This document shows positions 25,112 through 58,301 of a stretch of 64,000 nt of DNA, in pieces. A program made the position numbers and the translations under genes. Numbering within the stretch: the first letter of the stretch is position 1; each line of letters starts with the position of its first letter. Source of the stretch: a virus (lineage: Duplodnaviria; Heunggongvirae; Uroviricota; Caudoviricetes); IMG/VR virus record IMGVR_UViG_2872147552_000001; one strand, written 5' to 3'. The notes beneath the pieces are model-generated. The model worked only from the letters and a program-made list of their open reading frames with translations. It was not told the DNA's origin and did no database searches.

Positions 25112-25153
25112 CTCACATCCTTGTGAGACTGCCCCGGTCGGGGCAGTCGATAG

Positions 25154-29746: not shown

Positions 29747-30002
29747 ATATTTGCATCAGTTGCTCTTTGGCGTCAGGGTCTGCCTTATCCTGGCTTGGAT
29801 CGTAGACTTTATCTGTTACGACTGGTCTTCCAATCCTGAGTTGCAAACCCTCCATGAACGCCTTCACAGCCTCGCCATCCGCCTGGGACGCACGAGCGAC
29901 TTGTAAGTTGCGGACATCCTCTTCCGCACGCAGACGGTCTATATTGCGACTGAGCATCCAGAACATCGTGAGAGGAACGTTCAGTAGCTCTAATGGCGAC
30001 AC
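29733..30002 (-). CDS. T-like extension of tail assembly chaperone (putative -1 frameshift product segment)
   Basis: -1 frame relative to G-like gene; that frame stays open across the G stop (30083) up to at least 30120. Confidence 0.4.
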   Translation of the reverse strand: MSPLELLNVPLTMFWMLSRNIDRLRAEEDVRNLQVARASQADGEAVKAFMEGLQLRIGRPVVTDKVYDPSQDKADPDAKEQLMQIFGRG

Positions 30003-30082
30003 GGCGTAGTGAGCAACTACACGACTGAAATAGAATCCGAGATCTATTGAGACGGTCCTTGTCCCGGATTCATCGCGGGAAA

Positions 30083-30400
30083 TTACTTTGCCCCTTCGCC
30101 AGCCGCTTTTTCGTTTTCTTCATCAATCACTTCCATAGCGAAGGTGAAGATCTGCTGGAGTTGCGGAACAGTCAGTTTTTCAAGAACTTCGTCAGGTACT
30201 GAAGGGATAACCTTACGAACCAGATCTGCATAAGCTGTCACTTGCTCAACAGGAGACATGTTCATGAGATCTTTGCCTTCCATCTGCTTGATGGAAACGA
30301 ACAGACCTACCGTCATTTCAACGATGGGATATTCCTGACCGCCAAATTTGATGCTTTTCTTCGGAGGCAGAATGGAATCGAGATCGAGTAATTTGGTCAT
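30083..30400 (-). CDS. tail assembly chaperone (lambda G-like)
   Basis: 105-aa acidic protein between major tail protein and tape measure. Confidence 0.65.
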   Translation of the reverse strand: MTKLLDLDSILPPKKSIKFGGQEYPIVEMTVGLFVSIKQMEGKDLMNMSPVEQVTAYADLVRKVIPSVPDEVLEKLTVPQLQQIFTFAMEVIDEENEKAAGEGAK

Positions 30401-30455
30401 TGGTTAAAATCCTTTTAAAAGAGAGGCCCATCCTGAGCCTCTGCTTAATTACTGA

Positions 30456-31202
30456 TTAATCTGCGGGGTTAATCGTTACTGACTTAGTTGCCTTCTTACC
30501 ACCGCTATTGCTGGTGAAGGAGATATTTGTAGAACCCTGCGCCACACCACGTACCAGACCCGTTTGATCTACCGTGGCCTTTTCCTGGTCTTCGGATTCC
30601 CAAACACCGGTTTTGTCTGCGGCATCAGCTGGAGTGATTTCGGCTGTCAGTTGCACAGTTTCTCCAGCTTTTACGGTTGGAGATTCCGGTGAGATCGACA
30701 CAGTTTTTACCGGTTTAGGACCGCTCATTTTGCCCAGAACGCCTTCATCATCCGGGTATGCGCTGAACTGAACAGAGAACACACGAACATCATCAGACTG
30801 GTAAGTCATGGTGAAGTTGCCCGCGGTTGCCGCTTTCGGGATGGTCAACACATAGTCGGTGGTGTCCTGCGGAGTCAGAACCAGCTCCTTCGCCACATCA
30901 ATCAGGTTAACGCCCTGTGCAGATGTGATCGTGACAGAGCTGTCATCTTCGCTCAGAGTAGAACCAGGCATCAGGTCAACCATGTTTTGGAGTACAGACT
31001 CAGCCAGAGGCGCGGTGATGGTAATGTTGCGCCCCTGAACTAATTCGGAAATTACGGTCTGCCCCAACTGATCGACGGTGACTTTCAGCGTTTCAGTGGC
31101 TACTTCAACCTGAACACCACCTTTGGTGTAACCCAAATCCACACCACCAAACGACACCTTACAGGCACCAAGTTTGATGTTTTTTACATGGGTATTAGAC
31201 AT
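30456..31202 (-). CDS. major tail protein with C-terminal Ig-like (BIG2-type) domain
   Basis: AAAGGAG RBS before MSNTHVKNIKLG (track ORF to 31238); C-terminal Ig-like repeat (TVQLTAEITPADAADKTGVWESEDQEKATVD...). Confidence 0.75.
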   Translation of the reverse strand: MSNTHVKNIKLGACKVSFGGVDLGYTKGGVQVEVATETLKVTVDQLGQTVISELVQGRNITITAPLAESVLQNMVDLMPGSTLSEDDSSVTITSAQGVNLIDVAKELVLTPQDTTDYVLTIPKAATAGNFTMTYQSDDVRVFSVQFSAYPDDEGVLGKMSGPKPVKTVSISPESPTVKAGETVQLTAEITPADAADKTGVWESEDQEKATVDQTGLVRGVAQGSTNISFTSNSGGKKATKSVTINPAD

Positions 31203-31276
31203 TGATGGAAAACTCCTTTTTCCGTTAATTCTACGCATTCATTGCGCTAATAGTAAGTATATACTTACCAATTGAG

Positions 31277-31633
31277 TTAATTCAATAAATAGCCAGCAAA
31301 TTCAACAGGAATGCCTGCTTCTATTAATGCCCCATCATTTTTGGGATAAATGATTGGCATCGCCATCGGTCGTACAAGTCGAAAATAAACACCACCAGAT
31401 TCCGTTTCCTCTACTGGAAACATCTCAATGATTTTATTGGCTTTCTCAACCGTCGTAGTAATTGACGAACCACGCACAATGATTGTGAATGATTCGTGAT
31501 AAAAGCCCTGTAGCTCATGATCGATGCTGATACCGGTATTTGGGTTAATAAGCAGGACGCCAGATTTCACATTGGCAGGCAAGTAGTGACAGAAAATGTC
31601 AGTCCCGACCGTGCCAATCTTTGCCTTCTGCAT
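31277..31633 (-). CDS. tail terminator / tail completion protein (U-like position)
   Basis: Track ORF 31277..31783 overlaps upstream gene; start placed at internal Met51; function from synteny only. Confidence 0.45.
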   Translation of the reverse strand: MQKAKIGTVGTDIFCHYLPANVKSGVLLINPNTGISIDHELQGFYHESFTIIVRGSSITTTVEKANKIIEMFPVEETESGGVYFRLVRPMAMPIIYPKNDGALIEAGIPVEFAGYLLN

Positions 31634-31661
31634 CAAACTTGCAAACGCTTCGATAAACACA

Positions 31662-32135
31662 TTAACCTCTCGTAAAACCGGCTTTTCTTGCAGCCTCAAG
31701 AATCGCTTCTGAGAACTGCTTCTCGCTAATTTCCACCGCTCTTTCCAGAAAGTGTGGCCCAACACGAGGTTTAACACCGGCAATTGGTGGGTTTGTCACG
31801 TTCTTCATTCGAGAAAGATAACCGAGTCGGTATTTACCCAGCTCCATGTACTTAGCATAGTCACCGACTTCTACGCCCGGATGCCCCTGACGTGGTTTTG
31901 CTCCAGACACAGAAAGCTCAATACGCAGCCCTGAATAACCTTCTTTAATCACCCTGGCAAAGATGGCTGTCTCCAGAGATCCGGTTTCCAGCGGGGCCAT
32001 TGCACGGCTGAGACGCTCAACCAAACGCGCCAGCTTTTCCATGTCCCGAATAAGATATCGCTTAAATGCTTTCTGGCTGTTATTGAGTCTATTCCCCGCA
32101 CGTTTGAACTGATGCGCATCGTATTTCAGACCCAT
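31662..32135 (-). CDS. head-tail connector / neck protein
   Basis: 157-aa ORF in head-tail joining block; translationally coupled. Confidence 0.5.
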   Translation of the reverse strand: MGLKYDAHQFKRAGNRLNNSQKAFKRYLIRDMEKLARLVERLSRAMAPLETGSLETAIFARVIKEGYSGLRIELSVSGAKPRQGHPGVEVGDYAKYMELGKYRLGYLSRMKNVTNPPIAGVKPRVGPHFLERAVEISEKQFSEAILEAARKAGFTRG

Positions 32136-32566
32136 ATATTCGCCCCCACTTCAAGATGCCCAGGTCTTCCTCGTAGCCCCCAGCGGCGATGAACACTGGA
32201 CACCTTTAATTTTTGACCTTCAAGGATCAGCACATCATCAAGTTGTACAGCCGCTTCTAAAGGGACAACTAACACAGCATCAAACAGCTCCAGACTCGCC
32301 TTACCACGACTACCAGAGCTATCAGCACGAACTGACGATTTCTCATTACTCTGTTCGAACTTAACCACGCCGACATTCGTCTTCCTGACGAATTGTAATT
32401 GCGCCTCACCGTAAACGTTCTTTGCGCCAAAGCGGTAGATCGCAATTTCTGTTTGCCATGAAATATTCATGCTCTCTCCCTGTTGTTGTCGGTCGCTCTC
32501 ATTACTGGCCAAAAAACCTTTCGACCAAAAGTAAATAATGCGACTGGCGTTACGCACGGCGAACAA
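32126..32566 (-). CDS. head-tail connector / neck protein
   Basis: 146-aa ORF overlapping neighbours in operon. Confidence 0.5.
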   Translation of the reverse strand: MFAVRNASRIIYFWSKGFLASNESDRQQQGESMNISWQTEIAIYRFGAKNVYGEAQLQFVRKTNVGVVKFEQSNEKSSVRADSSGSRGKASLELFDAVLVVPLEAAVQLDDVLILEGQKLKVSSVHRRWGLRGRPGHLEVGANIWV

Positions 32567-33383
32567 TCATACGGTTGTTGATGTAACTGACCAGCAAGCG
32601 CCAGGTACTACGAGCCACATGCACGTTTGCAGCTTTACCGGTACGGTACATGTTGGTTGTTTCACCGATGGACTCTGACAAAATGCCATCCTCTCGTGCT
32701 GCGGCTACATCATTGCCATTTGCGATCTCACACGCTTCGTTGACAACGGCAAGCATCAACGCTTCTTTGAAGTAGTCAGGGAACTCTTCAAACTTCTCCT
32801 GCGTCATCTTTTCCCAATCGACTAAATCATGCCGGTACGCTCCATCTGCTCCCCACGGAATGTCATACACATTCAGCATATTTTGAGGGCGATCGTATCG
32901 GTCAAAGTCGATACGTAGAATTTTGCGGATTGAGAACGGTAAAGTTTTAATTCGTCTGGTAGCCTCAATGAGACGCTTGCGCATTAAGCCTTCACCATCC
33001 GACAGCAAAGTGTCCCCATTCAGCATATCGATCGCCTGCATTTGAGCATCAGCGACAGTTGCAAACGACTGTTCTGGTATCGACAGTTCAAAACTATTCA
33101 GCAGAACATACATTTGCCGCTCTTCATGCGTCAGACCCGATGCAACAGCCTTCACAATGACGTACCGCAGATCGCGTTCTTTCTCAGAGAGCTGGTTATA
33201 TTCAGCCGACACGACAACCGGAATCGACATTTGACCGCTGGTAATTTCTAGCGGCTCGCCATCAACGAGAATAGCCCCGGTGCTGTCCTTTACTGTGTAG
33301 GTAGCAGATTCGATATCCAGCACGTTGAAGGCAAATGAAAGGGAAACAGCTTCACCGCTACGATACGAGTCGATCTGCGCCAT
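32550..33383 (-). CDS. head-tail adaptor / head completion protein
   Basis: 277-aa ORF; synteny downstream of capsid genes. Confidence 0.5.
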   Translation of the reverse strand: MAQIDSYRSGEAVSLSFAFNVLDIESATYTVKDSTGAILVDGEPLEITSGQMSIPVVVSAEYNQLSEKERDLRYVIVKAVASGLTHEERQMYVLLNSFELSIPEQSFATVADAQMQAIDMLNGDTLLSDGEGLMRKRLIEATRRIKTLPFSIRKILRIDFDRYDRPQNMLNVYDIPWGADGAYRHDLVDWEKMTQEKFEEFPDYFKEALMLAVVNEACEIANGNDVAAAREDGILSESIGETTNMYRTGKAANVHVARSTWRLLVSYINNRMIVRRA

Positions 33384-33817
33384 TACTCACCGCCTTGTGC
33401 TTTCAGGATGCCTTCAATCATCTCGACAATTCCTTTCGCTTTGACACCAACCTGATTACCAATCACACGTAGACCGGCAATGCCTTCATTGTCTGCAATT
33501 GACTCCAACTCTTCTCGTGTGAAAGTCTGGATCTGTTTGGCCGGTTCATCTGGTGTCCCACGTTTCATTGGCACAATGTCAGGTGCTGCTGGCTCGGTAA
33601 TCAGGTCTGCGGTCAACTCGCCACGATCACTGTATGCGGCAGACGGAGAAACATTTTTGCCCTCGACTGTTGATGCTCGCATTGAGGCACAAATCCTTTG
33701 CTGATCGATAAAAGGCAACTCCGCTACGGACACCCCGTTCTCGAACTGAACGCCGCACAACATTCCCGAATAACCGGAAAATTGCGGTTCTAATAAAACA
33801 ATTTTTGCTGGTTTCAT
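33383..33817 (-). CDS. hypothetical virion protein
   Basis: 144-aa ORF coupled to downstream gene. Confidence 0.45.
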   Translation of the reverse strand: MKPAKIVLLEPQFSGYSGMLCGVQFENGVSVAELPFIDQQRICASMRASTVEGKNVSPSAAYSDRGELTADLITEPAAPDIVPMKRGTPDEPAKQIQTFTREELESIADNEGIAGLRVIGNQVGVKAKGIVEMIEGILKAQGGE

Positions 33818-33861
33818 AACGCATTCTCTCTACATGGGCGGCTTTCGCCGCCCAATATTGA

Positions 33862-34782
33862 TTATTCCTGTGCAGCAGTGACTTCTACGGTCGCTGTCGC
33901 TTTGTGGCTACCATCTTGGGTAGTAACCTCGATTGTGGCAGTACCAGCCGCAACGCCAGTTACAACACCGGTTTCGCTATCCACCGTTGCAAATTCGGTA
34001 TTTTTGGATTCCCAAGTAACGGTTTTATTTGTTGCTCCTGCCGGCTCGACATTTGCGGTCAGCTGAACAGTTTTGTTTGCCTCAACGTTTGTGCTATTTG
34101 GGTCGATTTCGACGCCGGTAACAGCCACAACAGGCGCAGTTACTTCCACCGTTGCAGTTCCCTTTTTGCTGCCATCTTGGGAAACGATCTCAATCGTCGC
34201 AGTGCCAACTTCTACACCAGTAACGTTCCCGCTCTGGTCTACCGTTGCCTTATCTTCATTTTTGGAAGACCAGGTAACAGCCTTATTCGTCGCATTTGAC
34301 GGCTGAACATTCGCTTTCAGACTGACTGATTTCCCTTTCTCAACAGACGTTGATTCTGGCGTTACCGTTACGGATTGAACGGCTACCGGATTTACGGTGA
34401 CTTCCACTGAAGCGGAAAGCTGGGTTTCCTGATCAGTTGCAGTAATTTTTACTTTGCCTGGTGCTACGCCAGTTACTAATCCAGTGCCGTTAACGGTTGC
34501 AATTTGGTCATTGGCTGACTTCCAGGTGAATGAACTGGCACTCTTACCCATAGTAATACCTGCACTAAGTTGAACAGTTTTCCCAACCAAAACTGACGGT
34601 GAAGCCGGGGTTATGTTTACGGATTGGGAGAAGGGAACCGCCTGCAAACAAGCAGATAGCTGACTTTGTTGTCGCTCGGTTAAAGGTTCATCGGAGATAG
34701 AATTGGTAAATCCGGCACGGCACATATGCCCCGTAAAATCCGAAAATGTCTCTTCCGTAATCTTCATCTTTTGTTCTGGCAT
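33862..34782 (-). CDS. Ig-like (BIG2) repeat protein, probable capsid decoration / head fibre
   Basis: Three tandem Ig-like repeats (TVQLSAGIT.., SVSLKANVQPSNATNKAVTWSS.., TVQLTANVEPAGATNKTVTWES..); follows major capsid gene. Confidence 0.7.
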   Translation of the reverse strand: MPEQKMKITEETFSDFTGHMCRAGFTNSISDEPLTERQQSQLSACLQAVPFSQSVNITPASPSVLVGKTVQLSAGITMGKSASSFTWKSANDQIATVNGTGLVTGVAPGKVKITATDQETQLSASVEVTVNPVAVQSVTVTPESTSVEKGKSVSLKANVQPSNATNKAVTWSSKNEDKATVDQSGNVTGVEVGTATIEIVSQDGSKKGTATVEVTAPVVAVTGVEIDPNSTNVEANKTVQLTANVEPAGATNKTVTWESKNTEFATVDSETGVVTGVAAGTATIEVTTQDGSHKATATVEVTAAQE

Positions 34783-34855
34783 TTCTCGCTCCTACAAAAA
34801 GGGTGGGCGTATAGCCCACCCTTTAACATAGATAATTACTTATCTACTTCACTGA

Positions 34856-35731
34856 TTAAATTTTTACATTGGTCAGTGCAGCGATAGCCTTATCGTGCTT
34901 ATTCGCCAGAGAGCAGTACCACTTCACACGGGTACGTACTGCGTCTTTGTTCTGTACAGTACCAATGTTTTCAACAACGATACCTGCGTTGTCGCCGCCA
35001 TACAGACCAGTAACGCCGTTCTCTTCTGACAGATGCAGGCAGTAGATGCTTGCTTTGCCAGAATCGGTCGGGATGAAGTCGTTGATGATGAACGGAACGC
35101 CGTTATGACACAGCATCGGACGACCGAAGTTCTCCATCATGATTTCAGACGGACCTACGTTTACTGTACGCAGCAGCGCACGGTAAGCACGCAGGTGCTC
35201 TGAACGCATCATGATGCAGTCAGCACCAAGATCTTTCACCGCATCGACCAGTTCGTCGAACATAGAGAAAGTCATAGATGCACCGGCGATATCGATCTTC
35301 TGATCTGCGTGCATCAGGCGTGGAATGCCGTCAAACGCCTTGTTGTTGGAGCTGGAGTCACCCAAAATCAGGTTGCGACGGAACGCACGAGCCAGACCTT
35401 TAACTTTCTGACGAACCTGAATAGCCAACTGGTTGTTGGTGTCGGCCATAGTGGTCGCCAGGAATTTATCAACGTCTACGTCACCAGCCAGAATACGCAG
35501 TTTCGCAACGCATTCTTCGAAGGTTGCTGCACCTTCAGGGATGGTGTCGTTAACGTCGATGAAGGTAGCTTCACTCAGCGTTTTTTCACGGTTGTACAGA
35601 TATGCCTTTGAATTAATTTTCATAAAAGGCAGGATGGCAAACAGGTCATCGCGATCGATGATAGTTTCGATCACACCCTGTTCAAGTTCGTTGTTAGACA
35701 GCTTTTCAGCTTCTTCACGCAGTAATGGCAT
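34856..35731 (-). CDS. major capsid protein
   Basis: 291 aa; follows scaffold and portal in T7-like order. Confidence 0.75.
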   Translation of the reverse strand: MPLLREEAEKLSNNELEQGVIETIIDRDDLFAILPFMKINSKAYLYNREKTLSEATFIDVNDTIPEGAATFEECVAKLRILAGDVDVDKFLATTMADTNNQLAIQVRQKVKGLARAFRRNLILGDSSSNNKAFDGIPRLMHADQKIDIAGASMTFSMFDELVDAVKDLGADCIMMRSEHLRAYRALLRTVNVGPSEIMMENFGRPMLCHNGVPFIINDFIPTDSGKASIYCLHLSEENGVTGLYGGDNAGIVVENIGTVQNKDAVRTRVKWYCSLANKHDKAIAALTNVKI

Positions 35732-35756
35732 CTATCAATTCCCTTTGATTTAGATG

Positions 35757-36644
35757 TTACTTAAGTCCAATTTTCCCCAGACCGGAGGCCAACTTATCCA
35801 TAGTCGACTTGTTCTTCGGTTGGGATATTGTGTAGGTCGATTTGGAATGTGAGCCTACACCCTGCTTGGCTTCGCTACGCATCAATGCGTCAGCTTCCGG
35901 ATCTGCCCGCACAATGCGTTCAATCGCGGATTCAAACGGCAACGGCTTACCTTCACCGTCAACCAGAACAGCTCGTTCTTTGTGACCTGCCGGTTTGTCA
36001 TAACCCACTACGCTACCGTCTTCACCAACTTCAAAATGAGAACCGTAGATCACGCGGGCTTTTGCCGGGGTCATCAGAACTTTGTCACGTAGGAAGAGAG
36101 AGTTACTGAAGGAAGCGCCCACGGTCATCTCGACTAATTGAGATTTCAGTGATGCGTTTTCACTTTCCAGTGCTGCATAACGTTCGTCACGCTGTGCCAG
36201 CTCTGCCTGGTGTGCTTCGATCATCTGTTTTTTAACAGCATCGAACTCACCACGACGCTCCAGTTCAGCTTGCTCCGCCTCACGACGTGCGTTTTCTGCG
36301 GCCTGTTCAGCTTCTAAAAGCTGGCGAGCACGAGCCGGATCGATATCACCGTACTGAGCAAGCTGATCGGCCAATGTGCGCTCTTTCTCTTTGCGCTTCA
36401 TGTTCTCCTTCAGCAGTTCAGCACCAGCTTTCTTGGTTTTACGAAGTTCGGCCAGTAACTCTTCCTGAGTCATGCCAGCGTATTCGTCATCGCCCTTCGG
36501 CTGCTCTTTTTGTTCACCCTGTTTGTCAGGATCTTGTGTACTCTGCTCATTATCAGCAGCTACACCGCCAGCGCCTCCACGCTCATGCGCTTCAGCGACA
36601 TCCATCAGACCACGACGGGCCAAAAGCATTTGCCACAGATTCAT
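35757..36644 (-). CDS. capsid scaffolding protein
   Basis: Acidic coiled-coil-rich 295 aa between portal and capsid. Confidence 0.65.
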   Translation of the reverse strand: MNLWQMLLARRGLMDVAEAHERGGAGGVAADNEQSTQDPDKQGEQKEQPKGDDEYAGMTQEELLAELRKTKKAGAELLKENMKRKEKERTLADQLAQYGDIDPARARQLLEAEQAAENARREAEQAELERRGEFDAVKKQMIEAHQAELAQRDERYAALESENASLKSQLVEMTVGASFSNSLFLRDKVLMTPAKARVIYGSHFEVGEDGSVVGYDKPAGHKERAVLVDGEGKPLPFESAIERIVRADPEADALMRSEAKQGVGSHSKSTYTISQPKNKSTMDKLASGLGKIGLK

Positions 36645-36665
36645 AAAAATTCCTTTTGTTACTTA

Positions 36666-38240
36666 TCACTCGTTCTCTTGAGTAGATGAGTCCCCATTCC
36701 CTCGGGGTTGATCTTGCCCGCTTTCTTGGGCTGCACCACGATCATAAGTAAGTACTGACTTATTTTCAAGGGTATTTAGATCATTTTTTGGAGGAAAATT
36801 CAAGAGATCTTTATCAAATTCCTTTTTCATCGCCTCAGTAATGTTCGGGAAAATCTTCTCAATAAGCATTTCCATCTGGTGACGACGTACAGAGTCCGGT
36901 GCCTGAAGTAATGACAGTTTCTCGGCAACAGAAAATTCATCAGTAAGGCCACGAATATCGAAACTTTCTGGATACGCAATTAAAGAGTGGTCTTCGTCCA
37001 GATCTACCCCCATCCATTTCGCAACCAGTAGCATGATTTGGCGTTCAGCCCTTTCCAGACGCTCTGCTTTTGTGACAAGCAAGCTATTTACACGCTGGAA
37101 GTCATACATTTTTGCGGCACCAGATGAATTATCGATTCCCTGTGCGTTGTCCTGCTTCGTTCGCTCACCAGCTACACCAACTGAATGGTAGATTTCGTTA
37201 ATCACCGTCTTAATCGTAGTGATGATCATCTGAGCTTGTTTCGGGTCTGGTGACAGATAAAACGGCTGGTTTCCACCTTCAGAATCGTAGGTGAAGACTC
37301 GCTTTGTGCCCATTTCAAGCACTTTAGTGTGGTTTTCATCACCAGGTAAAAGCGACTGTACCGGTATAGCCAACTGGCTAAATGTCTGATCCTGAATAAT
37401 GGCATCAAGGTTTGACAGATAGTTTGCAACCGCACGATCAAGATAAGCGATATCATCGATCAACGATGGGCTGAAATACGGTGATTCACTTTCTCCAATA
37501 CAATCAACAGGAAACACAGGAACTACGCCGAGATTATGCTCACCGCTATCCTCTAAAATAACTTTTGCCTGACGGCGACCTGCTCCACCAGCGCCCTTCT
37601 TCACTTCCTCACGGAACAGATACCACTCGTTTTGTGTCCACAGACGATAACGTTGGTATTCCTGACCTGTAGAAGTAAAAGGATCTGCGTCATCACGAGC
37701 GACTTCCACAATTAACGCCCACAACATATTCCCGTCGTCGTCCCATGCCACATCCAGCATTTGCTGAGGTGAAATCCAGTAGGCGTAGGCGCGAGCATCT
37801 TTCTTTTTCTCGTCAGCTACTGACTCAACATCACCACTCATCGTGCTATCGACAACAACCCATATGCGACCGTAAATAGACGACTGCAAATCAATAGCGG
37901 CCATAAATGAGTCAATAGAGGCATTCTGGCGAGTCGCACGTTTCCAGAAATTGCGGATCTGCTCTGGTGCCTCTTCGATATTTCTATGAATGTCTTCTTT
38001 AAAGAGATATTTGTTGATGAGGTTTACCACCTCACGAGTGTGGTTGAAGCGATAAGCACGTTCAACTCGCTCCTTAAACTCCTGATCTCCCTCTTTAAAG
38101 TAACGAAAGATATTGTCTGTAAACCAACCACGCCCGCCAGCGTAAGTGCTGGCGAGGAAGTCCCAATGTTCTTTTTTCTTTTCGTATTCCGGGTGGCGTC
38201 GCGCCACCAGATCCTTAATTTGTTTGTCGTTCAATTCCAT
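36666..38240 (-). CDS. portal protein
   Basis: 524 aa immediately downstream of terminase large subunit. Confidence 0.75.
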   Translation of the reverse strand: MELNDKQIKDLVARRHPEYEKKKEHWDFLASTYAGGRGWFTDNIFRYFKEGDQEFKERVERAYRFNHTREVVNLINKYLFKEDIHRNIEEAPEQIRNFWKRATRQNASIDSFMAAIDLQSSIYGRIWVVVDSTMSGDVESVADEKKKDARAYAYWISPQQMLDVAWDDDGNMLWALIVEVARDDADPFTSTGQEYQRYRLWTQNEWYLFREEVKKGAGGAGRRQAKVILEDSGEHNLGVVPVFPVDCIGESESPYFSPSLIDDIAYLDRAVANYLSNLDAIIQDQTFSQLAIPVQSLLPGDENHTKVLEMGTKRVFTYDSEGGNQPFYLSPDPKQAQMIITTIKTVINEIYHSVGVAGERTKQDNAQGIDNSSGAAKMYDFQRVNSLLVTKAERLERAERQIMLLVAKWMGVDLDEDHSLIAYPESFDIRGLTDEFSVAEKLSLLQAPDSVRRHQMEMLIEKIFPNITEAMKKEFDKDLLNFPPKNDLNTLENKSVLTYDRGAAQESGQDQPRGNGDSSTQENE

Positions 38241-38266
38241 TTGAATAACCTTAGATAATTACTTAC

Positions 38267-39523
38267 CTATCGAGAACCACCAAGAATAACACGGTTTTTG
38301 ACTGGATACCTACGATGTACTGGATAGCCCAATGCGTCTGCACTATGCTCAATGCCACCTGTCTTATCCATATCTCGTGTTCCAGGCTTGTAGATGACTT
38401 TTTCCAGTGAATCAATCAAATGCTTGCACTTCGGATCGATATACAGCCGGATATCTCCAGATGCGGTCATCAGCATTCGGTTAACAGCATTAACACGATC
38501 CGCAATTGGCGGGTGCTTTTTCGAATAATCGACACGTAAGAATCCCTTCTCTTTGAATATGTCGACGTCAGACTCCCCGCGAGCATGTTGGCGATAAGCA
38601 CCTGCCGGATCTGGAAATACCGTTATCTGTGATTTCCAGCGCCAGAAGCGTCTCTCAAGCTCATCACAAACCTCTGCCGTGTTAGAGGAAAAGAGCACCA
38701 ATTCATCAATTGCCCATAGCTCACCATTTGGCTGAGGTTGCAAAATTACTGAAGACATCGGGTCAATGTTGAAGTCCTGCCCTACCCATATAGGCAACCG
38801 AGGGTTGAACTGAAGCGGTTTTACATGCACGTTACGATCGAACGGGTAGTAAACGCGCCCGGACATGTTCTCAAAGCTCGCCAGGTACTCCTGAGCGAAC
38901 GATTTCGGGTCCATATCGTTCTTAGCAGCTTCAATTTCCGCCGTAGGTACAAACGGAGAATCGGCAGTTACAAACTGCCAGCTCTTCCACTGTCCCTTTC
39001 TTTGCAGCTCTACGTTCTGGCCTATAGTCCACAGTTTGTGAAATTCCGAGAAGCCTTTTGGCGTACCAATGATCAGTGCACCGCCGCGTGTCGATGAAAG
39101 AGTAGGTCGTAACACCTTGTACCAGGTGTCAGCCTTCATATCCTGAAATTCATCAAGCACTACAAAATGCAACGCTACGCCGCGCAGAGTGTCAGGCTTA
39201 TCAGCACCTTTGAGGGCGATCTCCGAACCGTTCTTCAACACGATTGTCATCGTGGTGTCGTTCTTTTTCCTAACCCACTTACGAGGCAGAACTTCCTGTA
39301 GATCGTCCCACAAAATCTGGCGAGCCATCTGGTAAGTAGGAGCGACATACCAGACCCTTTGCTTTTTTTCCTTTGCCGCCGCACGAATAATAGTGGAGAT
39401 CGACAACCGGGATTTTCCCCAGCGTCGACCAGCACAAACAACTTTAAATCGATGCGGAGACTGGAAGACTTTCATCTGTCCAGAATGCAGTTGCACAAGA
39501 CTGAGCGAGGACGGGATTGCCAT
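38267..39523 (-). CDS. terminase large subunit
   Basis: Walker A CAGRRWGKS, Walker B VVLDEF, C-terminal nuclease-like domain; overlaps TerS stop. Confidence 0.9.
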   Translation of the reverse strand: MAIPSSLSLVQLHSGQMKVFQSPHRFKVVCAGRRWGKSRLSISTIIRAAAKEKKQRVWYVAPTYQMARQILWDDLQEVLPRKWVRKKNDTTMTIVLKNGSEIALKGADKPDTLRGVALHFVVLDEFQDMKADTWYKVLRPTLSSTRGGALIIGTPKGFSEFHKLWTIGQNVELQRKGQWKSWQFVTADSPFVPTAEIEAAKNDMDPKSFAQEYLASFENMSGRVYYPFDRNVHVKPLQFNPRLPIWVGQDFNIDPMSSVILQPQPNGELWAIDELVLFSSNTAEVCDELERRFWRWKSQITVFPDPAGAYRQHARGESDVDIFKEKGFLRVDYSKKHPPIADRVNAVNRMLMTASGDIRLYIDPKCKHLIDSLEKVIYKPGTRDMDKTGGIEHSADALGYPVHRRYPVKNRVILGGSR

Positions 39524-40155
39524 TATTCGTCCTCCCCTTTACTTCCATCATCTGTCGCATCAAATTCGCTTAGAGCTTCTTCTTCTAACGTCTCAAGCAA
39601 TTCGTCATCGATGATTTCAGGCTCGTCGTCTTCCTGACGTAATTTCGCCACCTGGGAAGGCGTAAGCTCACCAAATACCAGGTTCGGAATTTCTTCCTCG
39701 TCATTTTCCGCATGATCCATGCCCAATGCTTTGGACGAAACTTCAAAGCATTTTGCAAGGGTATTACTGGCTCTCTGTAAGCTCTTGAGAGAATCCTCAA
39801 TCGCCCCTAAAGGCTTACCCTCACGTTTGGCCGTAGTGACTTCGACCATCACCATCTGCCCCAACGCATACGCCCAGCCGTCATAACGTGTACGACGTTC
39901 TTCTATCTTTTCCGCACGGGCTTTAGCGCGAAGCTCTGCGTCAGATTTAAGAGACTCACGAACCATCTTCCCAACAGAGTCCGCGCCTTTCTCTAATCCT
40001 CGCTTTTTGAAATGTCTGGAGAGTGTTTCACGACGAATGCCGTACTCTTCCTCCAGCTTTGAGAGTGTATATTCGCCTGACGTCCATTTGGCTTCAGCTT
40101 CGGCCCACTCCGCTGGTGTCAGGCGAGTTTTTACCTCGTCTTTTTCGACCGTCAT
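39523..40155 (-). CDS. terminase small subunit
   Basis: 210 aa, N-terminal HTH-like region, acidic C-terminus; directly upstream of TerL. Confidence 0.7.
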   Translation of the reverse strand: MTVEKDEVKTRLTPAEWAEAEAKWTSGEYTLSKLEEEYGIRRETLSRHFKKRGLEKGADSVGKMVRESLKSDAELRAKARAEKIEERRTRYDGWAYALGQMVMVEVTTAKREGKPLGAIEDSLKSLQRASNTLAKCFEVSSKALGMDHAENDEEEIPNLVFGELTPSQVAKLRQEDDEPEIIDDELLETLEEEALSEFDATDDGSKGEDE

Positions 40156-40271
40156 AGATCCCTCTAAAACACACAGAGCGCGTCCATGCGCTCTAAAACA
40201 ACTTGTTTACTGAATCTGCTAACCAACTTGTTTTCTGGGGTGTTTAATTAGGTCTGGGCATGTCTTATTAA

Positions 40272-40329
40272 GCCTGCTTCCGTATATATTTAATAAGTTA
40301 CTTATTATTTATATATACAGAAGCAGGTC
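40272..40329. repeat. 58-bp AT-rich imperfect palindrome, copy 2, flanked by GGTCTGGG / CCCAGACC inverted repeat
   Basis: gcctgcttccgtatatatttaataagttacttattatttatatatacagaagcaggtc; upstream of terminase operon; two GAAAACAA.TTGTTTTC-type sites lie at about 40190-40240. Confidence 0.7.
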
Positions 40330-40351
40330 TTTAAATAAGCTCCCAGACCGG

Positions 40352-40618
40352 TTACATCACCAGTAACTTCGCTTTGGCTCGACCTAAAGTGGTTAACCCA
40401 AGAGTTCGGCGGTGATAGCGATTGTCACTGCGTTGGCGCGTATGCCCTTTCTCCACCAGCCCCTTTTTTATCAGAGCGCGAATTGAGAACTGGATACTTT
40501 GCTTGGTTGTCTTGTACGGCAAAACTTCAAGCAATTCGTCCAGATCAAGTAAATGACCTCGCTCATAACCGAGGTTGAGCGTTTTGATGATGTCCTTTTG
40601 TTTATCGGTTAACGTCAT
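40352..40618 (-). CDS. small winged-helix DNA-binding protein (putative regulator)
   Basis: 88 aa with LEVLPYKTTKQSIQFSIRALIKKGLVEK helix-turn-helix-like segment. Confidence 0.45.
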   Translation of the reverse strand: MTLTDKQKDIIKTLNLGYERGHLLDLDELLEVLPYKTTKQSIQFSIRALIKKGLVEKGHTRQRSDNRYHRRTLGLTTLGRAKAKLLVM

Positions 40619-40627
40619 GGCAAATCC

Positions 40628-41527
40628 TTATGCCGGTAAAGCAATTTCTAACGGTTTATCCAAAGGTTGTTTGTCGAATGCCAGCAGTGGCAGCGTGTCA
40701 GGCAGCCGACGACCAAAGTCAGGGTTTCGGTACACACCATACAACGGAGACGTAAAGCTCAGGTTGTGAATGTCCTTGAGCAGCTTCACAATGCTGGCCT
40801 CGTCCACCAGACTGTCGGCAATGTCCTGAATCGTCGTGCCACGATTCCGCCCAGCTTTTGCCAGGGAACTGTTCTTGTGGTAGTCCGCTACCAGATCACG
40901 CAGTGCACGGCGACGACGAGACTCGCTCATTGCGAACAACTCTTTGACGATCGCCTCGTTATCACCCGGGTCGGAACGGAAATGGCGCTGGAATACACGC
41001 AGTGCACTTTCATAGCTCTTCGGTCGCTCAGGGCGGATGAACTTAAACCCTGCTTTCATGGCGAAGGGATTGTATTTGCTCATCGAGGACTGGATCTCAA
41101 TGATTGGCCGGTCGTGCATCCTGCTAACCAGGTTAATCATTCGATAGGAGACGCCGACACCGCGGTACTGAGTGTCCACAACGGAACGGCTGATCACCGC
41201 AAAGTTGTTGTTCACGTACCGCCCCCAATACTGGTTGGCCACGGTGGTATTGGTGGTTGGCTTCAGCTTAGGAAACATGCGATGGCGAGGCGCCAGCAGC
41301 AGTTTCGGGTAAGCCATAACCACGACGCCCACCAGCCGGTCGTCCAGTTCGCAGCGATAATACGTTGGCGCAAACGGCTTACCATCCGTCTTGTAGTGCA
41401 GCGACTTCAGCGCGTGCCAGTCTTCAACCGTGCCTTTGGTAACGGTCATACGCTCCAGAAAGTCCAGATGACGCGGGAACTCTTCCGGGCGGTAGCGTTT
41501 GATGATGATGCCTGTCATGTCGATCAC
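40628..41527 (-). CDS. GNAT-fold acetyltransferase domain fused to helical C-terminal domain
   Basis: GNAT motif A QYRGVGVSYRMI and motif B NPFAMKAGFKFI in N-terminal ~170 aa; 299 aa. Confidence 0.5.
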   Translation of the reverse strand: MIDMTGIIIKRYRPEEFPRHLDFLERMTVTKGTVEDWHALKSLHYKTDGKPFAPTYYRCELDDRLVGVVVMAYPKLLLAPRHRMFPKLKPTTNTTVANQYWGRYVNNNFAVISRSVVDTQYRGVGVSYRMINLVSRMHDRPIIEIQSSMSKYNPFAMKAGFKFIRPERPKSYESALRVFQRHFRSDPGDNEAIVKELFAMSESRRRRALRDLVADYHKNSSLAKAGRNRGTTIQDIADSLVDEASIVKLLKDIHNLSFTSPLYGVYRNPDFGRRLPDTLPLLAFDKQPLDKPLEIALPA

Positions 41528-41778
41528 CTACGCTCGATATTGGCATTGATGAAGTCCAGGCGAAGCGATTCCATCGCCCCAACCATGACGTATGGACGCC
41601 CACCGTTATGCCAGCAATCCAGCACACTGCCGTCGTTGTTGATCATCAGCAGTGCCAGGCTCTGGCTTTTGCCTTCTCTGGCGTACTGGAGTGCTTCTTC
41701 CAGCAGGCGGATGACTTCAACGTTGTTGTTGTCAGCCTCTTTCGATGGCTTCAGCTCTACGATCTTCAAATCAGGCAT
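41524..41778 (-). CDS. hypothetical small protein
   Basis: 84-aa ORF translationally coupled between ABC ATPase and GNAT genes. Confidence 0.45.
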   Translation of the reverse strand: MPDLKIVELKPSKEADNNNVEVIRLLEEALQYAREGKSQSLALLMINNDGSVLDCWHNGGRPYVMVGAMESLRLDFINANIERR

Positions 41779-42409
41779 ATTCCACCTTCACGCGTTCTTT
41801 GTAGTGCTTGGTGATCTGCATATCCGGGCGCAGCGCGTTCTTCAGGTCTTCGTGAGTCGTCGCCACCATTACCGTCGCACCAACCTTTCGAGCGGCACGC
41901 TGGAGGTTAGATGCCACAACCTGAGCGGTTACACGGTCTAGAACAGCCCCGAACTCGTCAGCAGCCCACACTTTAGCGCCTGACTCAATCAGTTTGGCAA
42001 TCTTGAGACGATATTTCTGGCCGTCTGACATTTCAGAAGGCTTGCGAACAAACAGATATGCATCGTTCAGACCAGCCATAGATAACAACCCAAGCGCATC
42101 ACTGGTCGTTTTGCCCAACTGATCGATGACGTTAACCTCATTATCGAAGGTAAAATCATCGATGGAGGCTACAGACAGCCCTTCATCCTTCATCTGTCGT
42201 TGCAACTCGCGCAGCACAACGGATTTGCCGGATCCGGATTGGCCGGTGATGTACACCACATCGCCCTGCTTCACTTCCAGCTCCAGATTGTCGTAAAGCG
42301 TCCACTCTTTTTCGTCCAGACCAAGCCCGAACGACTCAGCGATTTCCAACGTGCGCGTGGTTTTATTTACGCGTGTCTGAAACGATACGTTGATGATGTA
42401 TTTGCTCAT
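41771..42409 (-). CDS. compact ABC-type ATPase (nucleotide-binding domain only)
   Basis: Walker A GQSGSGKS, ABC signature SDGQKYRL, Walker B VWAADEF, H-loop TTHE; 212 aa, no membrane domain. Confidence 0.75.
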   Translation of the reverse strand: MSKYIINVSFQTRVNKTTRTLEIAESFGLGLDEKEWTLYDNLELEVKQGDVVYITGQSGSGKSVVLRELQRQMKDEGLSVASIDDFTFDNEVNVIDQLGKTTSDALGLLSMAGLNDAYLFVRKPSEMSDGQKYRLKIAKLIESGAKVWAADEFGAVLDRVTAQVVASNLQRAARKVGATVMVATTHEDLKNALRPDMQITKHYKERVKVEYA

Positions 42410-43074
42410 GCAGCCATCTCCCCGGAAGAGATCTTCTCCGCATATGCCACAAATGCGTCTACCCCGCTTTCTCCTGTCATTTCTTCCATGTGGGCAAGCA
42501 AATCACCAACAACAATGGCAGAGCCAGCAGGGAGCGTTTTAAAGCCCAATACGTCGACAACACGTACTTCTTCCGCTGCAACTTCACGACTGATCTCGGT
42601 GTGTTCATCCTTCTGTCGTTTAGTTTCTTCGCCAAGATCGATAACTAGCGAGTCGGTGTCCATTTCTTCTGTCATACTGCCAACGAGAACATTCAACTCA
42701 CGCTCTTCAAAGCCGAAAACCTCGATATCGTCCAGAACAAGCGACTCAAGCTCTTTCTGTAGCTTAATTGCATCGTAATCAATGCTGGCTAGTCGGTTAT
42801 CTTCAAGGCGCTTCGCACGAACCTCGTCATCACTCAGATCATCGCGAACAATAACCGGCACGCGCTCAAGTCCAGCAAAAATTGCAGCCTCACGGCGGCC
42901 GTGGCCAGTAATAATTACGTCGTTCTTATCGACCGTAATTGGCTGGTCAAATCCTCGCTTTTTAATGGCTGCGGCCAGATCTCGGATCTGCTGTTCATCA
43001 TGCTTTTTGGCATTCATCTCATAGGGAATAAGATCTGCCGGGTCGCGATATACGATTTCAAACTTTTTGGTCAT
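42406..43074 (-). CDS. ParB/Srx-like nuclease-domain protein 2
   Basis: LIPYEMNAKKH...ITVDKNDVIITGHGRREAAIFAGLERVPVIV ParB N-domain signature; start placed at Met12 overlapping upstream stop (track to 43107). Confidence 0.65.
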   Translation of the reverse strand: MTKKFEIVYRDPADLIPYEMNAKKHDEQQIRDLAAAIKKRGFDQPITVDKNDVIITGHGRREAAIFAGLERVPVIVRDDLSDDEVRAKRLEDNRLASIDYDAIKLQKELESLVLDDIEVFGFEERELNVLVGSMTEEMDTDSLVIDLGEETKRQKDEHTEISREVAAEEVRVVDVLGFKTLPAGSAIVVGDLLAHMEEMTGESGVDAFVAYAEKISSGEMAA

Positions 43075-43772
43075 TACATACGCTCCTTGTAGTAGTCGAC
43101 CAGCCACACCAGAGCCTCACCAGCGTTCTCCATTTCATTACCGGTGTTAATAGCCTGCTCTTTGATGATGTTTTTTATGGTTTCTGCAACACGATCTGAC
43201 GCATCGAAAGTTACTTTGAAGCGCATGGTCTGATGTTCCGCCCCCACACGTTCGGTTTTCTCTCGTTTGTCGGTATCGACAGGCTCATCACTACCACGAG
43301 ACAACGCCTCCAGTGCTTCAAGGTCGATTGCCGCCTCTTTTGCTAAAACCATCGAGATTTCGTCGTCATACGGGGCGATTTCAGACAGTTGATAGTCAAG
43401 TTCTGACTGAATTTCTTCAATGAAGCGTTGCAATGCGATTTGGTCGTCTTCACCGTATCGCTCGTTGTCCACCAGTGACATCTGTTTAGCTACGACATCG
43501 CTAATTTTGCCCACAGAAAGCACCGGAACCGTTGAAATTCCTTGCTCAATAGCAGCACGCCAGCGATGTTCGCCGCCGAGGATTTCAAAAAATCCATCTT
43601 CAAGTTCACGAGCCAAAATTGGCTTAAAAAAGCCCAATTTTTCGATAGAACCTTTCAGTTTTTCAAAATTCTGCGCACCAACCGAATTGGTGTTCCAGGT
43701 ATTCGGGCGAAGGTTGGCAACATCAACCTGCAAAATCGTGATTTTTACATCCATTTTATTGCTACAATCCAC
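43074..43772 (-). CDS. ParB/Srx-like nuclease-domain protein 1
   Basis: LRPNTWNTN...ILGGEHRWRAAIEQGISTVPVLSV ParB N-domain signature; 232 aa; first gene after the divergent promoter. Confidence 0.65.
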   Translation of the reverse strand: MDCSNKMDVKITILQVDVANLRPNTWNTNSVGAQNFEKLKGSIEKLGFFKPILARELEDGFFEILGGEHRWRAAIEQGISTVPVLSVGKISDVVAKQMSLVDNERYGEDDQIALQRFIEEIQSELDYQLSEIAPYDDEISMVLAKEAAIDLEALEALSRGSDEPVDTDKREKTERVGAEHQTMRFKVTFDASDRVAETIKNIIKEQAINTGNEMENAGEALVWLVDYYKERM

Positions 43773-43797
43773 TAAGTAATCACTTACTTATTATAAT
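43773..43797 (+). promoter_or_regulatory. divergent promoter/operator region (TAAGTA-NN-CACTTA operator overlapping TATAAT -10)
   Basis: taagtaatcacttacttattataat between divergently transcribed ParB-like and helicase genes. Confidence 0.5.
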
Positions 43798-43836
43798 AGC
43801 CAAATAACATACAAAAGGCACTAAGGAAAGAGGTTT

Positions 43837-45396
43837 ATGACTGTTCGGATTGTATCTAACGCAGTAAATGCGCTTATTTCTGGCGCAGATGACAAGGTAA
43901 AGCAACTGGTGCAGCAAATGTTGAGCTACGAAGTCGAGACTGGCGACTGGAAGGGCACAAGCACGATGTTCAACTGGAGTAAAAACTCGTTCCCTGCTGG
44001 CTTTGCCAAGCCTGTAGCGGCGAACTTGAACAAGGCGGGCATCAAATGTGTTCATATCCGCAAAGACAAAGCCCCGGCGCTTGGTAAACCAAATCCTGCG
44101 GTTAACCCATTCCCATACAATCCTGATTATGCGTATCAGGATCAGACTGTGGAAACACTGGTTCGAGAGGGAATGATGATTGCGCAGATCGCTACTGGTG
44201 GCGGGAAATCTAACGTTGCCTGCAAAGCAGCTGCACGTATCGGTCGAATGACATTATTTTTAACAACCCGCTCTGTTCTGATGTTTCAAATGGCCGAAAA
44301 CTTCCAGAGATCCATCGACTACCGCGCCGAAAATGGTGAACCGTGGTTAAAAGACCAAAAGGTTGGAGTCATTGGCTCGGGTGAGTTCCAGGTATCACGA
44401 CATATCAACGTCGCTACAGTTCAAACTCTTGCAAGTTTCCTCGAAGAACCACCACGCGATGCAACACCAGATAAGAAAAGCTACCACCTCAAACGTCGGG
44501 AGTTGGTGAAACGCTTCCTTTCAAGTGTCTCTCTTCTTATTCTGGAAGAGGCGCATGAGTCTTCAGGCTCAAATTTCTATGACATCGCCAGATTATGTGT
44601 GAACGCAGACTATCGTCTGGCGCTTACAGCCACGCCGTTCATGAAGGATTCGACGGAAGCCAACATGCGCCTGATGGCGGTGGCCGGGCGAATTGAAATT
44701 AAAGTCACAGAAAAGTACCTGATTGATCGAGGCATTCTGGCAAAGCCGTACTTCCTTTATCATAAAGTTGCCTACAAGCCAGACGAGGCCAGAATCAAGG
44801 CCGAACTTGCCAACAAACACCTCAATTTTAGAGTTGGTATGAGCACCGCCTACCAAAAGGCTTATCAGTTGGGGATCGTGTATAATTTGGGACGTAACGA
44901 GGCCATAGTGCGCGAGGCATTGCTTTATAAGCAACATTCACTCAACTGCATGACTCTGGTTCGTCTTAAACGCCACGGGCAAATCCTGATGGAGATGATG
45001 AAGGAGTCAGGTCTTAAAGTTGATTTCATCTATGGGGAATCTAACCAGACGACAAGGCAAGCAAAGCTGAATAGTTTAGCGTCTGGTGAAATAGATGTTT
45101 TAATAGGCTCGACTATTCTGGATGTTGGTGTTGATGTGCCAAGCGTTGGTGCGGTCATTCTTGCTGGTGGTGGGAAAGCAGAAGTTGAAATGAGACAGCG
45201 TGTCGGTCGTGGCTTACGAGCCAAAAAAAATCAGGCAAACGTGTGTTTTATCACTGATTTCATTGACATTAGCAACAAATACCTGTTGTCTCACTCTTAT
45301 GAGCGAAAACACATCATCGACACCACACCTGGCTTTGCAGAAGGTGTATTGCCTATTGATGGAGCATTCGATTTTGGAGTTCTGAAACGAGATTAG
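43837..45396 (+). CDS. SF2 helicase (DEAD/DEAH-box, ResIII-like)
   Basis: Motif I ATGGGKS, motif II LEEAHE, motif III TATP, motif VI QRVGRGLR; 519 aa. Confidence 0.8.
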   Translation: MTVRIVSNAVNALISGADDKVKQLVQQMLSYEVETGDWKGTSTMFNWSKNSFPAGFAKPVAANLNKAGIKCVHIRKDKAPALGKPNPAVNPFPYNPDYAYQDQTVETLVREGMMIAQIATGGGKSNVACKAAARIGRMTLFLTTRSVLMFQMAENFQRSIDYRAENGEPWLKDQKVGVIGSGEFQVSRHINVATVQTLASFLEEPPRDATPDKKSYHLKRRELVKRFLSSVSLLILEEAHESSGSNFYDIARLCVNADYRLALTATPFMKDSTEANMRLMAVAGRIEIKVTEKYLIDRGILAKPYFLYHKVAYKPDEARIKAELANKHLNFRVGMSTAYQKAYQLGIVYNLGRNEAIVREALLYKQHSLNCMTLVRLKRHGQILMEMMKESGLKVDFIYGESNQTTRQAKLNSLASGEIDVLIGSTILDVGVDVPSVGAVILAGGGKAEVEMRQRVGRGLRAKKNQANVCFITDFIDISNKYLLSHSYERKHIIDTTPGFAEGVLPIDGAFDFGVLKRD

Positions 45397-51256: not shown

Positions 51257-51326
51257 TTCACTCTCCGTAGTGTATTGGTTATTTTTATATTCTATGATCG
51301 TAAGTATGTACTTACAATACAAAAAA

Positions 51327-58264: not shown

Positions 58265-58270
58265 TAAAAA

Positions 58271-58289
58271 GGCGGTGCATTGCACCGCC
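58271..58289. terminator. bidirectional terminator between apbC and UmuD'-like gene
   Basis: ggcggtgcattgcaccgcc hairpin flanked by A-run / T-run. Confidence 0.65.
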
Positions 58290-58301
58290 TAATCAGTTCT
58301 C

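Follow-up and report, generated by a model that had tools for sequence, protein, structure and literature searches.

The stretch analyzed here, 64,000 nucleotides of the virus record IMGVR_UViG_2872147552_000001 (hereafter the window), belongs to an SSU5/Cyrano-like phage-plasmid, as identified by megablast. Over the two stretches compared with Escherichia phage CMS-2020a, the identity is 97–98%; it is 97–99% in the parts shared with Cyrano (the plasmid of E. coli LF82), ~81% with Salmonella phage SSU5, and ~79% with Klebsiella phage-plasmids. Most of the window consists of minus-strand genes for replication, lysis, tail, head, and terminase, followed by an operon encoding two ParB_N proteins, while ~44–64 kb contains plus-strand and mixed-orientation maintenance/accessory genes. 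The feature under study is a palindrome at the boundary of these two parts, located between the ParB_N operon and a divergently oriented DEAD-box helicase gene.

This palindrome belongs to a dispersed family. The 14-bp sequence TAAGTA-NN-TACTTA, which an earlier note on this DNA took to be the repeated unit, is the core of a 22–24 bp palindrome, (T)GATARGTAAGT|ACTTAYCTATC(A), and the true register is an 18-mer, TARGT-N8-ACYTA, within it. The longer element was recognized by reading every TAAGTA and TACTTA in the window and in SSU5. Its ideal 22-mer is GATAGGTAAGT|ACTTACCTATC, often lengthened by A/T runs (e.g., AAAATGATA…TATCATTTT). A matrix pooled from three genomes is symmetric, in both halves as well as in the A/T flanks.

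Copies of the palindrome occur far above chance. Fifteen positions in the window have at least 15 of the 22 ideal bases (1.1 expected), as do 27 in SSU5 (1.2 expected), 32 in CMS-2020a (1.5 expected), and 28 in Klebsiella pJN2-26, the last being a count without a shuffle control. Thirteen copies in the window are good (~1 expected), and full replicons carry 25–32. The 18-mer rule has 16 matches in the window (4.2 expected), and TAAGTA is the top over-represented sense-strand hexamer of the window. The exact 14-bp pattern is present four times (350, 17829, 31254, and 51301) and in none of 100 dinucleotide shuffles, an excess over composition; the version with a 6-nt spacer is present three times, including the focal 43773–43790. 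The family reported in the earlier note is thus genuine and was understated there. All 12 of the places it listed carry the motif, although several have one good half only, the copy given as 34843–34858 is displaced by 16 bases from its actual position of 34827–34848, and the copy at 2826–2847 was overlooked (Table 1).

Table 1. Palindrome copies, promoter-like elements, and candidate DNA-binding proteins in the window.
Feature	Position	Strand	Sequence	Context
Focal palindrome	43771–43792	minus (sense)	AATAAGTAAGTGATTACTTAGT	64-bp divergent region, DEAD-box helicase gene (+) / ParB_N operon (−)
Palindrome copy	344–365		GATAAGTAAGTAAATACTTATC	
Palindrome copy	2826–2847	sense	GATAGGTAAGTACAAGATTATT	abuts start codon of open reading frame 2342–2824
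Palindrome copy	3697–3718	minus	TGTGAGAAT (3684–3692)	N4 sense-ward of the palindrome, then the sequence given
Palindrome copy	7131–7152			2 nt upstream of start of open reading frame 6379–7128
Palindrome copy	11865–11886	sense	TGATATAAA (16 nt downstream)	upstream of lysis cassette
Palindrome copy	17827–17848			between two large tail genes, then a GC hairpin
Palindrome copy	24747–24768			terminator-like hairpin with 10-bp stem sense-ward, 24738–24716
Palindrome copy	31252–31273			between head/tail genes
Palindrome copy	34827–34848			just past major capsid gene, then terminator-like hairpin 34821–34805
Palindrome copy (only intragenic)	36743–36764	minus		portal gene 3' end; in spacer of TTGAAA-N17-TATGAT (36769–36741)
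Palindrome copy	38250–38271			terminase/portal junction; overlaps TerL stop, ends 9 nt before portal ATG
Palindrome copy	51299–51320			directly past terminator-like GC hairpin with T-run (by eye); only good copy in 44–64 kb
Extended −10-like element	43758–43766	−	TGTAGCAAT	4 nt downstream of focal palindrome, ParB_N direction; putative promoter
Perfect −10-like element	43792–43797	+	TATAAT	helicase direction; overlaps last base of the 22-mer; putative promoter
ParB_N protein 1	43074–43772	−		Pfam ParB_N, E = 3e-13; box-II-like GGEHRWRAA
ParB_N protein 2	42406–43107	−		Pfam ParB_N, E = 1.5e-8; no other domain
MarR-like winged-helix protein, 88 amino acids	40352–40618	−		between ATPase genes and terS; candidate binder

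Twelve of the 13 good copies are located in the non-coding 8.4% of the window (binomial P = 1.5e-12). This bias is partly explained by stop codons in the motif's other reading frames; the sole coding copy, that of the portal gene, is read in the one frame without a stop codon. The intergenic copies lie almost all within blocks of genes oriented in the main (lytic) direction. In SSU5, the main-direction blocks have 24 sites in 8.6 kb of intergenic DNA, and the accessory/maintenance block has one site in 3.2 kb; the window has one good copy between 44 and 64 kb. The near absence of sites from the maintenance/accessory block, along with the locking of some sites to promoters at a fixed spacing, does not indicate the centromere or marking role that the earlier note had raised. 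The copies do lie at gene junctions, but "just upstream" of genes describes them only in part, as the distance to the start codon ranges from overlap to >100 nt. Several sites are found directly past a terminator-like GC hairpin with a T-run (identified by eye), and the capsid gene, palindrome, and hairpin arrangement at 34827 is kept in distant relatives. The palindromes were rejected as intrinsic terminators themselves: their stems are A-U-rich and mostly have no T-run, and the terminator-like hairpins adjoin the palindromes rather than lie within them.

The focal palindrome is closely associated with promoter-like sequences on both sides. Its center is at about −30.5 relative to the putative promoter in the ParB_N direction. 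In the helicase direction, TATAAT begins 2 nt after the palindrome as originally delimited (43773–43790), which places the center at about −22.5 with no −35 element. From these positions we infer that a single palindrome sits within both divergent promoters. The arrangement palindrome-N4 (3–6 nt)-TGTnnnAAT recurs at operon starts and divergent regions in the window (3697 and 43771), in SSU5 (38177, 84177, and 63079), and in Klebsiella (342, 20934, and 79843), and the same spacing is seen at paralogous sites in CMS-2020a. At sites of this class the palindrome center is at about −30.5, the place of the absent −35 hexamer. The portal copy lies instead in the spacer of the best σ70-like match of a 20-kb region (window 24001–44000). 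Such matches number 10 in this region, under half the 21.6 in shuffles, and three of them, the best included, coincide with motif copies (36769–36741, 31285–31256, and 24770–24742). The portal-internal copy is conserved in SSU5, Klebsiella, Morganella, Xenorhabdus, and Photobacterium. The geometry of the sites with respect to transcription signals is not uniform, because some copies are adjacent to hairpins, some abut start codons, and some have no visible −10, such as those at the terminase/portal junction, past the capsid gene, and between tail genes. In several cases, a gene starts 0–10 nt past the palindrome (window 38240–38271 and 2824–2847; SSU5 39086 and 33599), and an arm TAnnnT acting there as a −10 would give leaderless or near-leaderless transcripts; at SSU5 58073 and 77650, an ATG follows immediately past TATC.

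The motif is conserved in related elements. A scan of the IMG/VR database with the strict enteric motif TARGTAAGTACTTAYCTA returned almost only SSU5-like contigs; other phage families were dismissed as carriers, the remaining hits being single chance matches in low-GC contigs. A large terminase (TerL) search of bacterial genomes yielded 20 loci, including those of Kluyvera, Y. pestis, Morganella, Xenorhabdus, Photobacterium, Halomonas, three beta-proteobacteria, and three alpha-proteobacteria; for the alpha- and beta-proteobacterial relatives, the region examined was ±10 kb around TerL. The arms of the palindrome are constant in these relatives and the center is lineage-specific, with copies found at the same gene junctions. 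The enteric form is TARGT-AAGTACTT-ACYTA, that of Morganella and Xenorhabdus is TAGGT-ATTTAAAT-ACCTA, and that of most other relatives is TAAGTCA-N4-TGACTTA. The sequence TAAGT[C/A]A-N4-T[G/T]ACTTA is present at the same junctions in Morganella, Xenorhabdus, Photobacterium, Halomonas, and the beta- and alpha-proteobacterial relatives, and ninety-odd more IMG/VR loci bear out TAAGT[C/A]A as the universal half-site across 42 lineages. The divergent helicase/ParB_N region has a copy in most relatives examined, alpha-proteobacterial ones included, and a few of these copies are degenerate. The Faunimonas copy is CTATGATAAGT-AAGCGCTG-ACTTATCATAG, with an N8 spacer between the arms. Most relatives also have a copy at the terminase/portal junction. 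In Castellaniella, a beta-proteobacterium, the motif is replaced by three co-oriented, non-palindromic 18-mers, T[AT]AGTTACCACTTAC[TC][TA]A, each preceded by TTG (10901, 14584, and 17550), one of which runs into TACAAT 7 nt before an ATG; the 18-mer seems to have been derived from the family motif as a directional version. Judging from its distribution, the motif is an ancient cis-element that belongs specifically to this family of phage-plasmids, whatever the host, and this points to a binder encoded by the element.

The junction placement of the palindromes, their frequent overlap with stop codons, and the terminator hairpins adjacent to some could also suit an element acting at the RNA level, in which mRNA hairpins would serve in processing, stability, or a role like that of repetitive extragenic palindromic (REP) elements, whose placement at gene junctions is similar. 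The earlier note had allowed for such a role. However, the variable mirrored pair R5/Y18 does not covary, with A-C combinations occurring at chance frequency, and wobble-compatible mismatches (117 sense vs. 91 antisense) reveal no sense-strand excess of G-U. The predicted RNA hairpins have just 6–7 pairs, are rich in A-U, with folding energies between −3.6 and −9 kcal/mol, and differ little from shuffles (z = −0.8 to −1.9); no Rfam match was found in the window, and copies occur in non-transcribed divergent promoter regions (43771 and 3697). The RNA hairpin or REP-like explanation was therefore set aside as most improbable, on the absent covariation, weak folds, and lack of an Rfam match. The independence of the half-sites, the weak folds, and the lack of strand bias lead instead to duplex DNA bound by a dimer; conservation of sequence rather than of pairing is characteristic of sites at which a symmetric protein binds duplex DNA.

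These dimer-type sites extend over the whole element, exceed chance expectation, and are conserved in relatives, and therefore one sequence-specific binder is indicated, acting in the manner of KorB or P1 C1. This much of the single-binder proposal in the earlier note is upheld, but the ParB-like proteins it named are weak candidates (see below). We tentatively suggest, at a little short of an even chance, that the palindromes are dispersed operators through which one element-encoded DNA-binding protein co-ordinates the lytic genes, with the 88-amino acid winged-helix protein being the likeliest binder. The AlphaFold2 model of this protein (predicted local distance difference test score of 82) has a canonical winged helix with the order H1-S1-H2-H3-wing. 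In Foldseek comparisons, the model matches MepR, MarR, ZitR, AdcR, and MftR-DNA (probability 1.0; template modeling score 0.7–0.76), and it is also similar to small winged-helix proteins from archaea and viruses (APE_0880a, AF1382, and SSV1 F-93). The gene is syntenic in 100 of the 113 related loci, and the putative recognition helix, TTKQSxQFSxRAL, is conserved. The operator of the MarR-type regulator UrtR, TnnCT-N8-AGnnA, likewise consists of two short elements 8 bp apart (PMC11602129). Neither the winged-helix gene (CYRAN_123) nor the ParB_N genes (CYRAN_119/120) are in the list of Cyrano genes expressed in lysogens (PMC9928086), which fits a factor of the lytic cycle better than a lysogeny repressor. 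Because these candidate binders are not among the reported lysogen-expressed genes, we lean slightly toward activation as the sign of regulation, the palindrome being a "lytic promoter box".

Were the winged-helix protein the binder, each monomer would read one TGATARGT arm in the major groove, the arms being 8 bp apart as in MarR-type operators, and the wings would touch the A/T-rich flanks. At operon starts, the palindrome would take the place of the absent −35, at about −30.5 where the promoter has an extended −10 or at about −22.5 where it has TATAAT, and its occupancy would decide use of the promoter by RNA polymerase. The focal palindrome would serve both divergent promoters, including that of the candidate binder's own operon, resulting in autoregulation, and the junction copies inside the long late operon would be extra entry or hold points.

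Several observations weigh against this proposal. The 88-amino acid protein has no Pfam family at E ≤ 0.01 and no Pfam MarR signature, and it lacks the long dimerization helices of MarR proteins, having only short helices that flank the core. Covariation between the recognition helix and the site center, assessed over 42 lineages, amounts to a weak trend that phylogeny confounds: C8 is invariably present when helix position 7 is H, R, or L, but Q there is found with A8 as well as with C8. It would also be odd for replication and nucleotide-metabolism genes, which bear sites as well, to be controlled by the product of an operon that looks late. Many copies have no recognizable adjacent promoter, and others are within 10 nt of terminator-like hairpins (24747 and 34827) or abut start codons (2826 and 7131).

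The candidate gene is part of a syntenic module (window 39523–45396), in which the DEAD-box helicase gene is divergent from genes for ParB_N-1, ParB_N-2, an ABC-type ATPase, and a 299-amino acid protein, followed by the small winged-helix protein, terS, terL, and portal. In the annotation of Cyrano, the 299-amino acid protein is an ATPase fused to an acetyltransferase domain. The module is present in every relative, across alpha-, beta-, and gamma-proteobacteria (34–98% identity), as a neighbor of the packaging genes.

A KorB/ParB/Noc-type system is an unlikely alternative source of the binder. In it, the palindromes would be loading sites for a ParB_N protein that forms a nucleotide-dependent clamp and regulates or organizes the whole element. 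The dispersal of the palindromes in intergenic DNA is like that of KorB operator (OB) sites, of which plasmid RK2 has 12; the focal site is directly upstream of the ParB_N operon, and the ParB_N pair is syntenic in every motif-bearing relative. ParB_N-1, whose true start is probably a conserved ATG ~17 nt downstream of the palindrome, matches the structures of Spo0J (1vz0), ParB, and Noc (E = 1e-9 to 1e-5) and has the box-II-like sequence noted in Table 1, and the family-wide inner core TCAC..GTGA recalls parS. Set against this, the ParB_N domain was the only one detected in either protein, and the segment of ParB_N-1 that aligns to the Spo0J helix-turn-helix (HTH) is acidic (…YDDEISMVLAKE…), degenerate, and without basic recognition residues. 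The arms are 8 bp apart in a site of 22–24 bp, as compared to 13–16 bp for ParB-family sites, the palindromes are scarce in the plasmid-maintenance block, and the actual partition ParA is encoded elsewhere (8567–9235).

We consider it equally improbable that the binder is a lysogeny repressor, the Xre-type HTH protein CYRAN_45, which is encoded outside the window and would silence the lytic operons by binding the palindromes as C1 does in P1. CYRAN_45 is annotated as a repressor and is expressed ~10-fold above background in lysogens (PMC9928086). In Cyrano and the Klebsiella relative, the divergent repressor/cro-like region contains one copy of the motif, CTCTGGTAAGTGCTTACCGATA, ~25 nt ahead of the repressor start. 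The palindromes overlap the −35 or spacer of several putative promoters and avoid the maintenance block. The candidacy of CYRAN_45 is weakened because SSU5 has no detectable homologue (tblastn E > 1) and yet keeps ~25 well-conserved sites; in addition, the putative immunity region carries one copy only. Elsewhere in the window (57164–58691), a MinD/ParA-like gene (366 amino acids, plus strand) adjoins a gene for a 129-amino acid S24 peptidase (UmuD/LexA-like, minus strand). The Cyrano counterparts of this pair are CYRAN_99 and CYRAN_98, respectively, and CYRAN_99 is expressed in lysogens (PMC9928086).

The core of the palindrome resembles the late promoters of phage P1, which have AAGT[G/T]ACTT followed by 4 nt and TAnnAT (e.g., LPs, AAGTTACTTATCTTACAAT; NC_005856 annotation). 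By analogy, the AAGT|ACTT center would correspond to a "−22 box" and the arm TATCAT to a −10, with the promoter firing in the gene direction under an Lpa-like activator. The enteric motif does have AAGTACTT followed by 3 nt and TATCAT, the focal site has TATAAT with the palindrome center at −22.5, and the three Castellaniella copies are co-oriented and non-palindromic, with the TACAAT ending cited above. We nevertheless give such a promoter only a low probability. Among 89 sites, the sense-side arm matches TAnnnT in 35 and the antisense-side arm in 26 (P = 0.2), so there is no directional asymmetry, and the pooled matrix is symmetric. No homologue of P1 Lpa was found by tblastn in the window, CMS-2020a, SSU5, or pJN2-26 (E > 1), and hhalign of the winged-helix alignment against Lpa gave a probability of 0.1%. 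In Morganella and Xenorhabdus, the AAGTACTT center is lost and the arms are kept; palindromes also precede early-type genes, and at some sites the resulting transcripts would begin within a terminator hairpin or immediately ahead of one. Despite the shared core, a P1 Lpa-type promoter was thus rejected for want of directionality and of an Lpa homologue.

The enteric palindromes also bear a striking resemblance to the sites of the nucleoid-occlusion protein SlmA of E. coli. The 12-bp core of SlmA-binding sites (SBS), GTRAGYRCTYAC, requires G1, T2, A4, and G5 (PMC3020112). The palindrome core GTAAGTACTTAC fits the rule G1, T2, R3, A4, G5, Y6, and a G-to-A change at position 3 leaves the dissociation constant at ~60 nM (PMC3020112). 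The outer TAAGT arms match the 20-bp consensus from chromatin immunoprecipitation (ChIP), GTAAGTGAGCGCTCACTTAC, and SBS17; natural SBS17 and SBS12 also depart from the 12-bp rule (PMC4423959). With at most one mismatch to the rule, the window has eight sites (1.4 expected) and a replicon has 14–18. The chromosome itself has only ~50 SlmA sites (52 ChIP-seq peaks). No SlmA homologue was found in the elements by tblastn with an SlmA sequence as query. It is nonetheless very unlikely that, in the members from E. coli, Salmonella, and Klebsiella, the palindromes serve to recruit host SlmA and so couple the plasmid or the replicating phage DNA to FtsZ inhibition. The strict rule is followed by one window site only (GTAAGTACTTAC at 11870–11881; 0.07 expected) and by 2–6 per replicon, and G never occurs in the pooled matrix at the position where chromosomal SlmA sites prefer it. 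The Morganella and Xenorhabdus center ATTTAAAT breaks the required A4/G5, though these hosts should have SlmA, and alpha-proteobacterial relatives, whose hosts to our knowledge lack SlmA, keep TAAGTCA..TGACTTA. Because the motif is kept with SBS-incompatible centers and in alpha-proteobacterial hosts, SlmA cannot explain the family and was rejected as its origin on this comparative test. A narrower possibility, only slightly less remote, concerns the E. coli/Salmonella/Klebsiella/Yersinia branch, in which drift of the center from an ancestral TAAGTCA..TGACTTA to AAGTACTT would make many copies bindable by SlmA and so delay or block division by DNA alone. If SlmA does bind, the SlmA sites contributed by a plasmid at ~5 copies would outnumber those of the chromosome, and lytic replication would add hundreds to thousands more; septation might then be delayed over unsegregated plasmids, or division blocked in the lytic cycle. 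A few copies match the 12-bp rule perfectly, among them the one upstream of the Cyrano repressor gene, GGTAAGTGCTTACC (~12605–12618).

A second, longer palindrome shares part of the motif. It is ~54 bp in length, A/T-rich, and nearly perfect, with the sequence CTGCTTCCGTATATAT(AT)TTAATAAGT-T-ACTTATTATTTATATA(TA)CAGAAGCAG, and it occurs twice in the window (7237–7293 and 40273–40327), with a related copy in SSU5 near 78328. Its center, AATAAGT-T-ACTTATT, is made up of the same arms as the dispersed motif but lacks the 8-bp spacer. The copy at 40273–40327 is in a 196-bp gap between the winged-helix gene and terS, the place where the linear maps of SSU5 and Cyrano begin. From its sequence and position, this palindrome may be a packaging, origin, or bidirectional-terminator element.

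SSU5-like phage-plasmids are widespread and carry resistance genes; they include pHCM2 of S. Typhi, pMT1-related elements of Y. pestis, Cyrano of E. coli LF82, and many Klebsiella plasmids. In the literature searched, we found no account of how the ~80 kb of lytic genes of these elements are switched, and nothing relevant on the motif, on promoters of SSU5 or pHCM2, or on SlmA in phage-plasmids. A single cis-element, conserved and present at nearly all of the lytic transcription units, provides a handle on this switching, as do a single divergent control region (43758–43797) and a short list of candidate binders. The motif is also usable as a signature in metagenomes, to find and orient members of the family.

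The kind of system proposed here is well known, from P1 C1 operators, Lpa boxes, and KorA/KorB operators; what appears to be new, against the literature searched, is this motif itself, the range of Proteobacteria in which it occurs, and the regulator proposed for it. As in the IncP operators of KorB (OB) and KorA (OA) and the C1 operators visible in the annotation of P1, one sequence is found at least 10–20 times in the intergenic DNA of a large element. In those systems, some sites overlap promoters, some are distant, and the regulator is autoregulated from one of them. The sequences and lengths of the sites differ from those here, which number 25–32 per element and span three proteobacterial classes, and unlike KorB, the ParB_N proteins have no convincing HTH, the favored candidate being a winged-helix protein. 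Like P1, an enterobacterial phage-plasmid with about a dozen or more dispersed copies of its box, these elements have a palindromic box with an AAGT..ACTT core. The P1 boxes lie just upstream of a −10 with no −35, a geometry shared by the plus strand of the focal site. However, the palindrome here is 22–24 bp with conserved outer TGATARGT arms, it is not confined to late genes, and its spacing to the −10 varies (−22.5, −30.5, −42.5, or no −10), as opposed to the fixed 4 nt of P1. With respect to SBS, the core and TAAGT arms of the enteric variants fit the published needs, the strict rule being followed at few sites. The MarR operators of UrtR, PecS, and MftR likewise have two short elements 8 bp apart and A/T-rich flanks that suit the wings. 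The candidate has the winged-helix fold of MarR regulators, but is 88 amino acids in length, without a dimerization domain or ligand pocket, and whereas MarR proteins typically act at a single local promoter or a small number of them, there are ~30 dispersed sites here.

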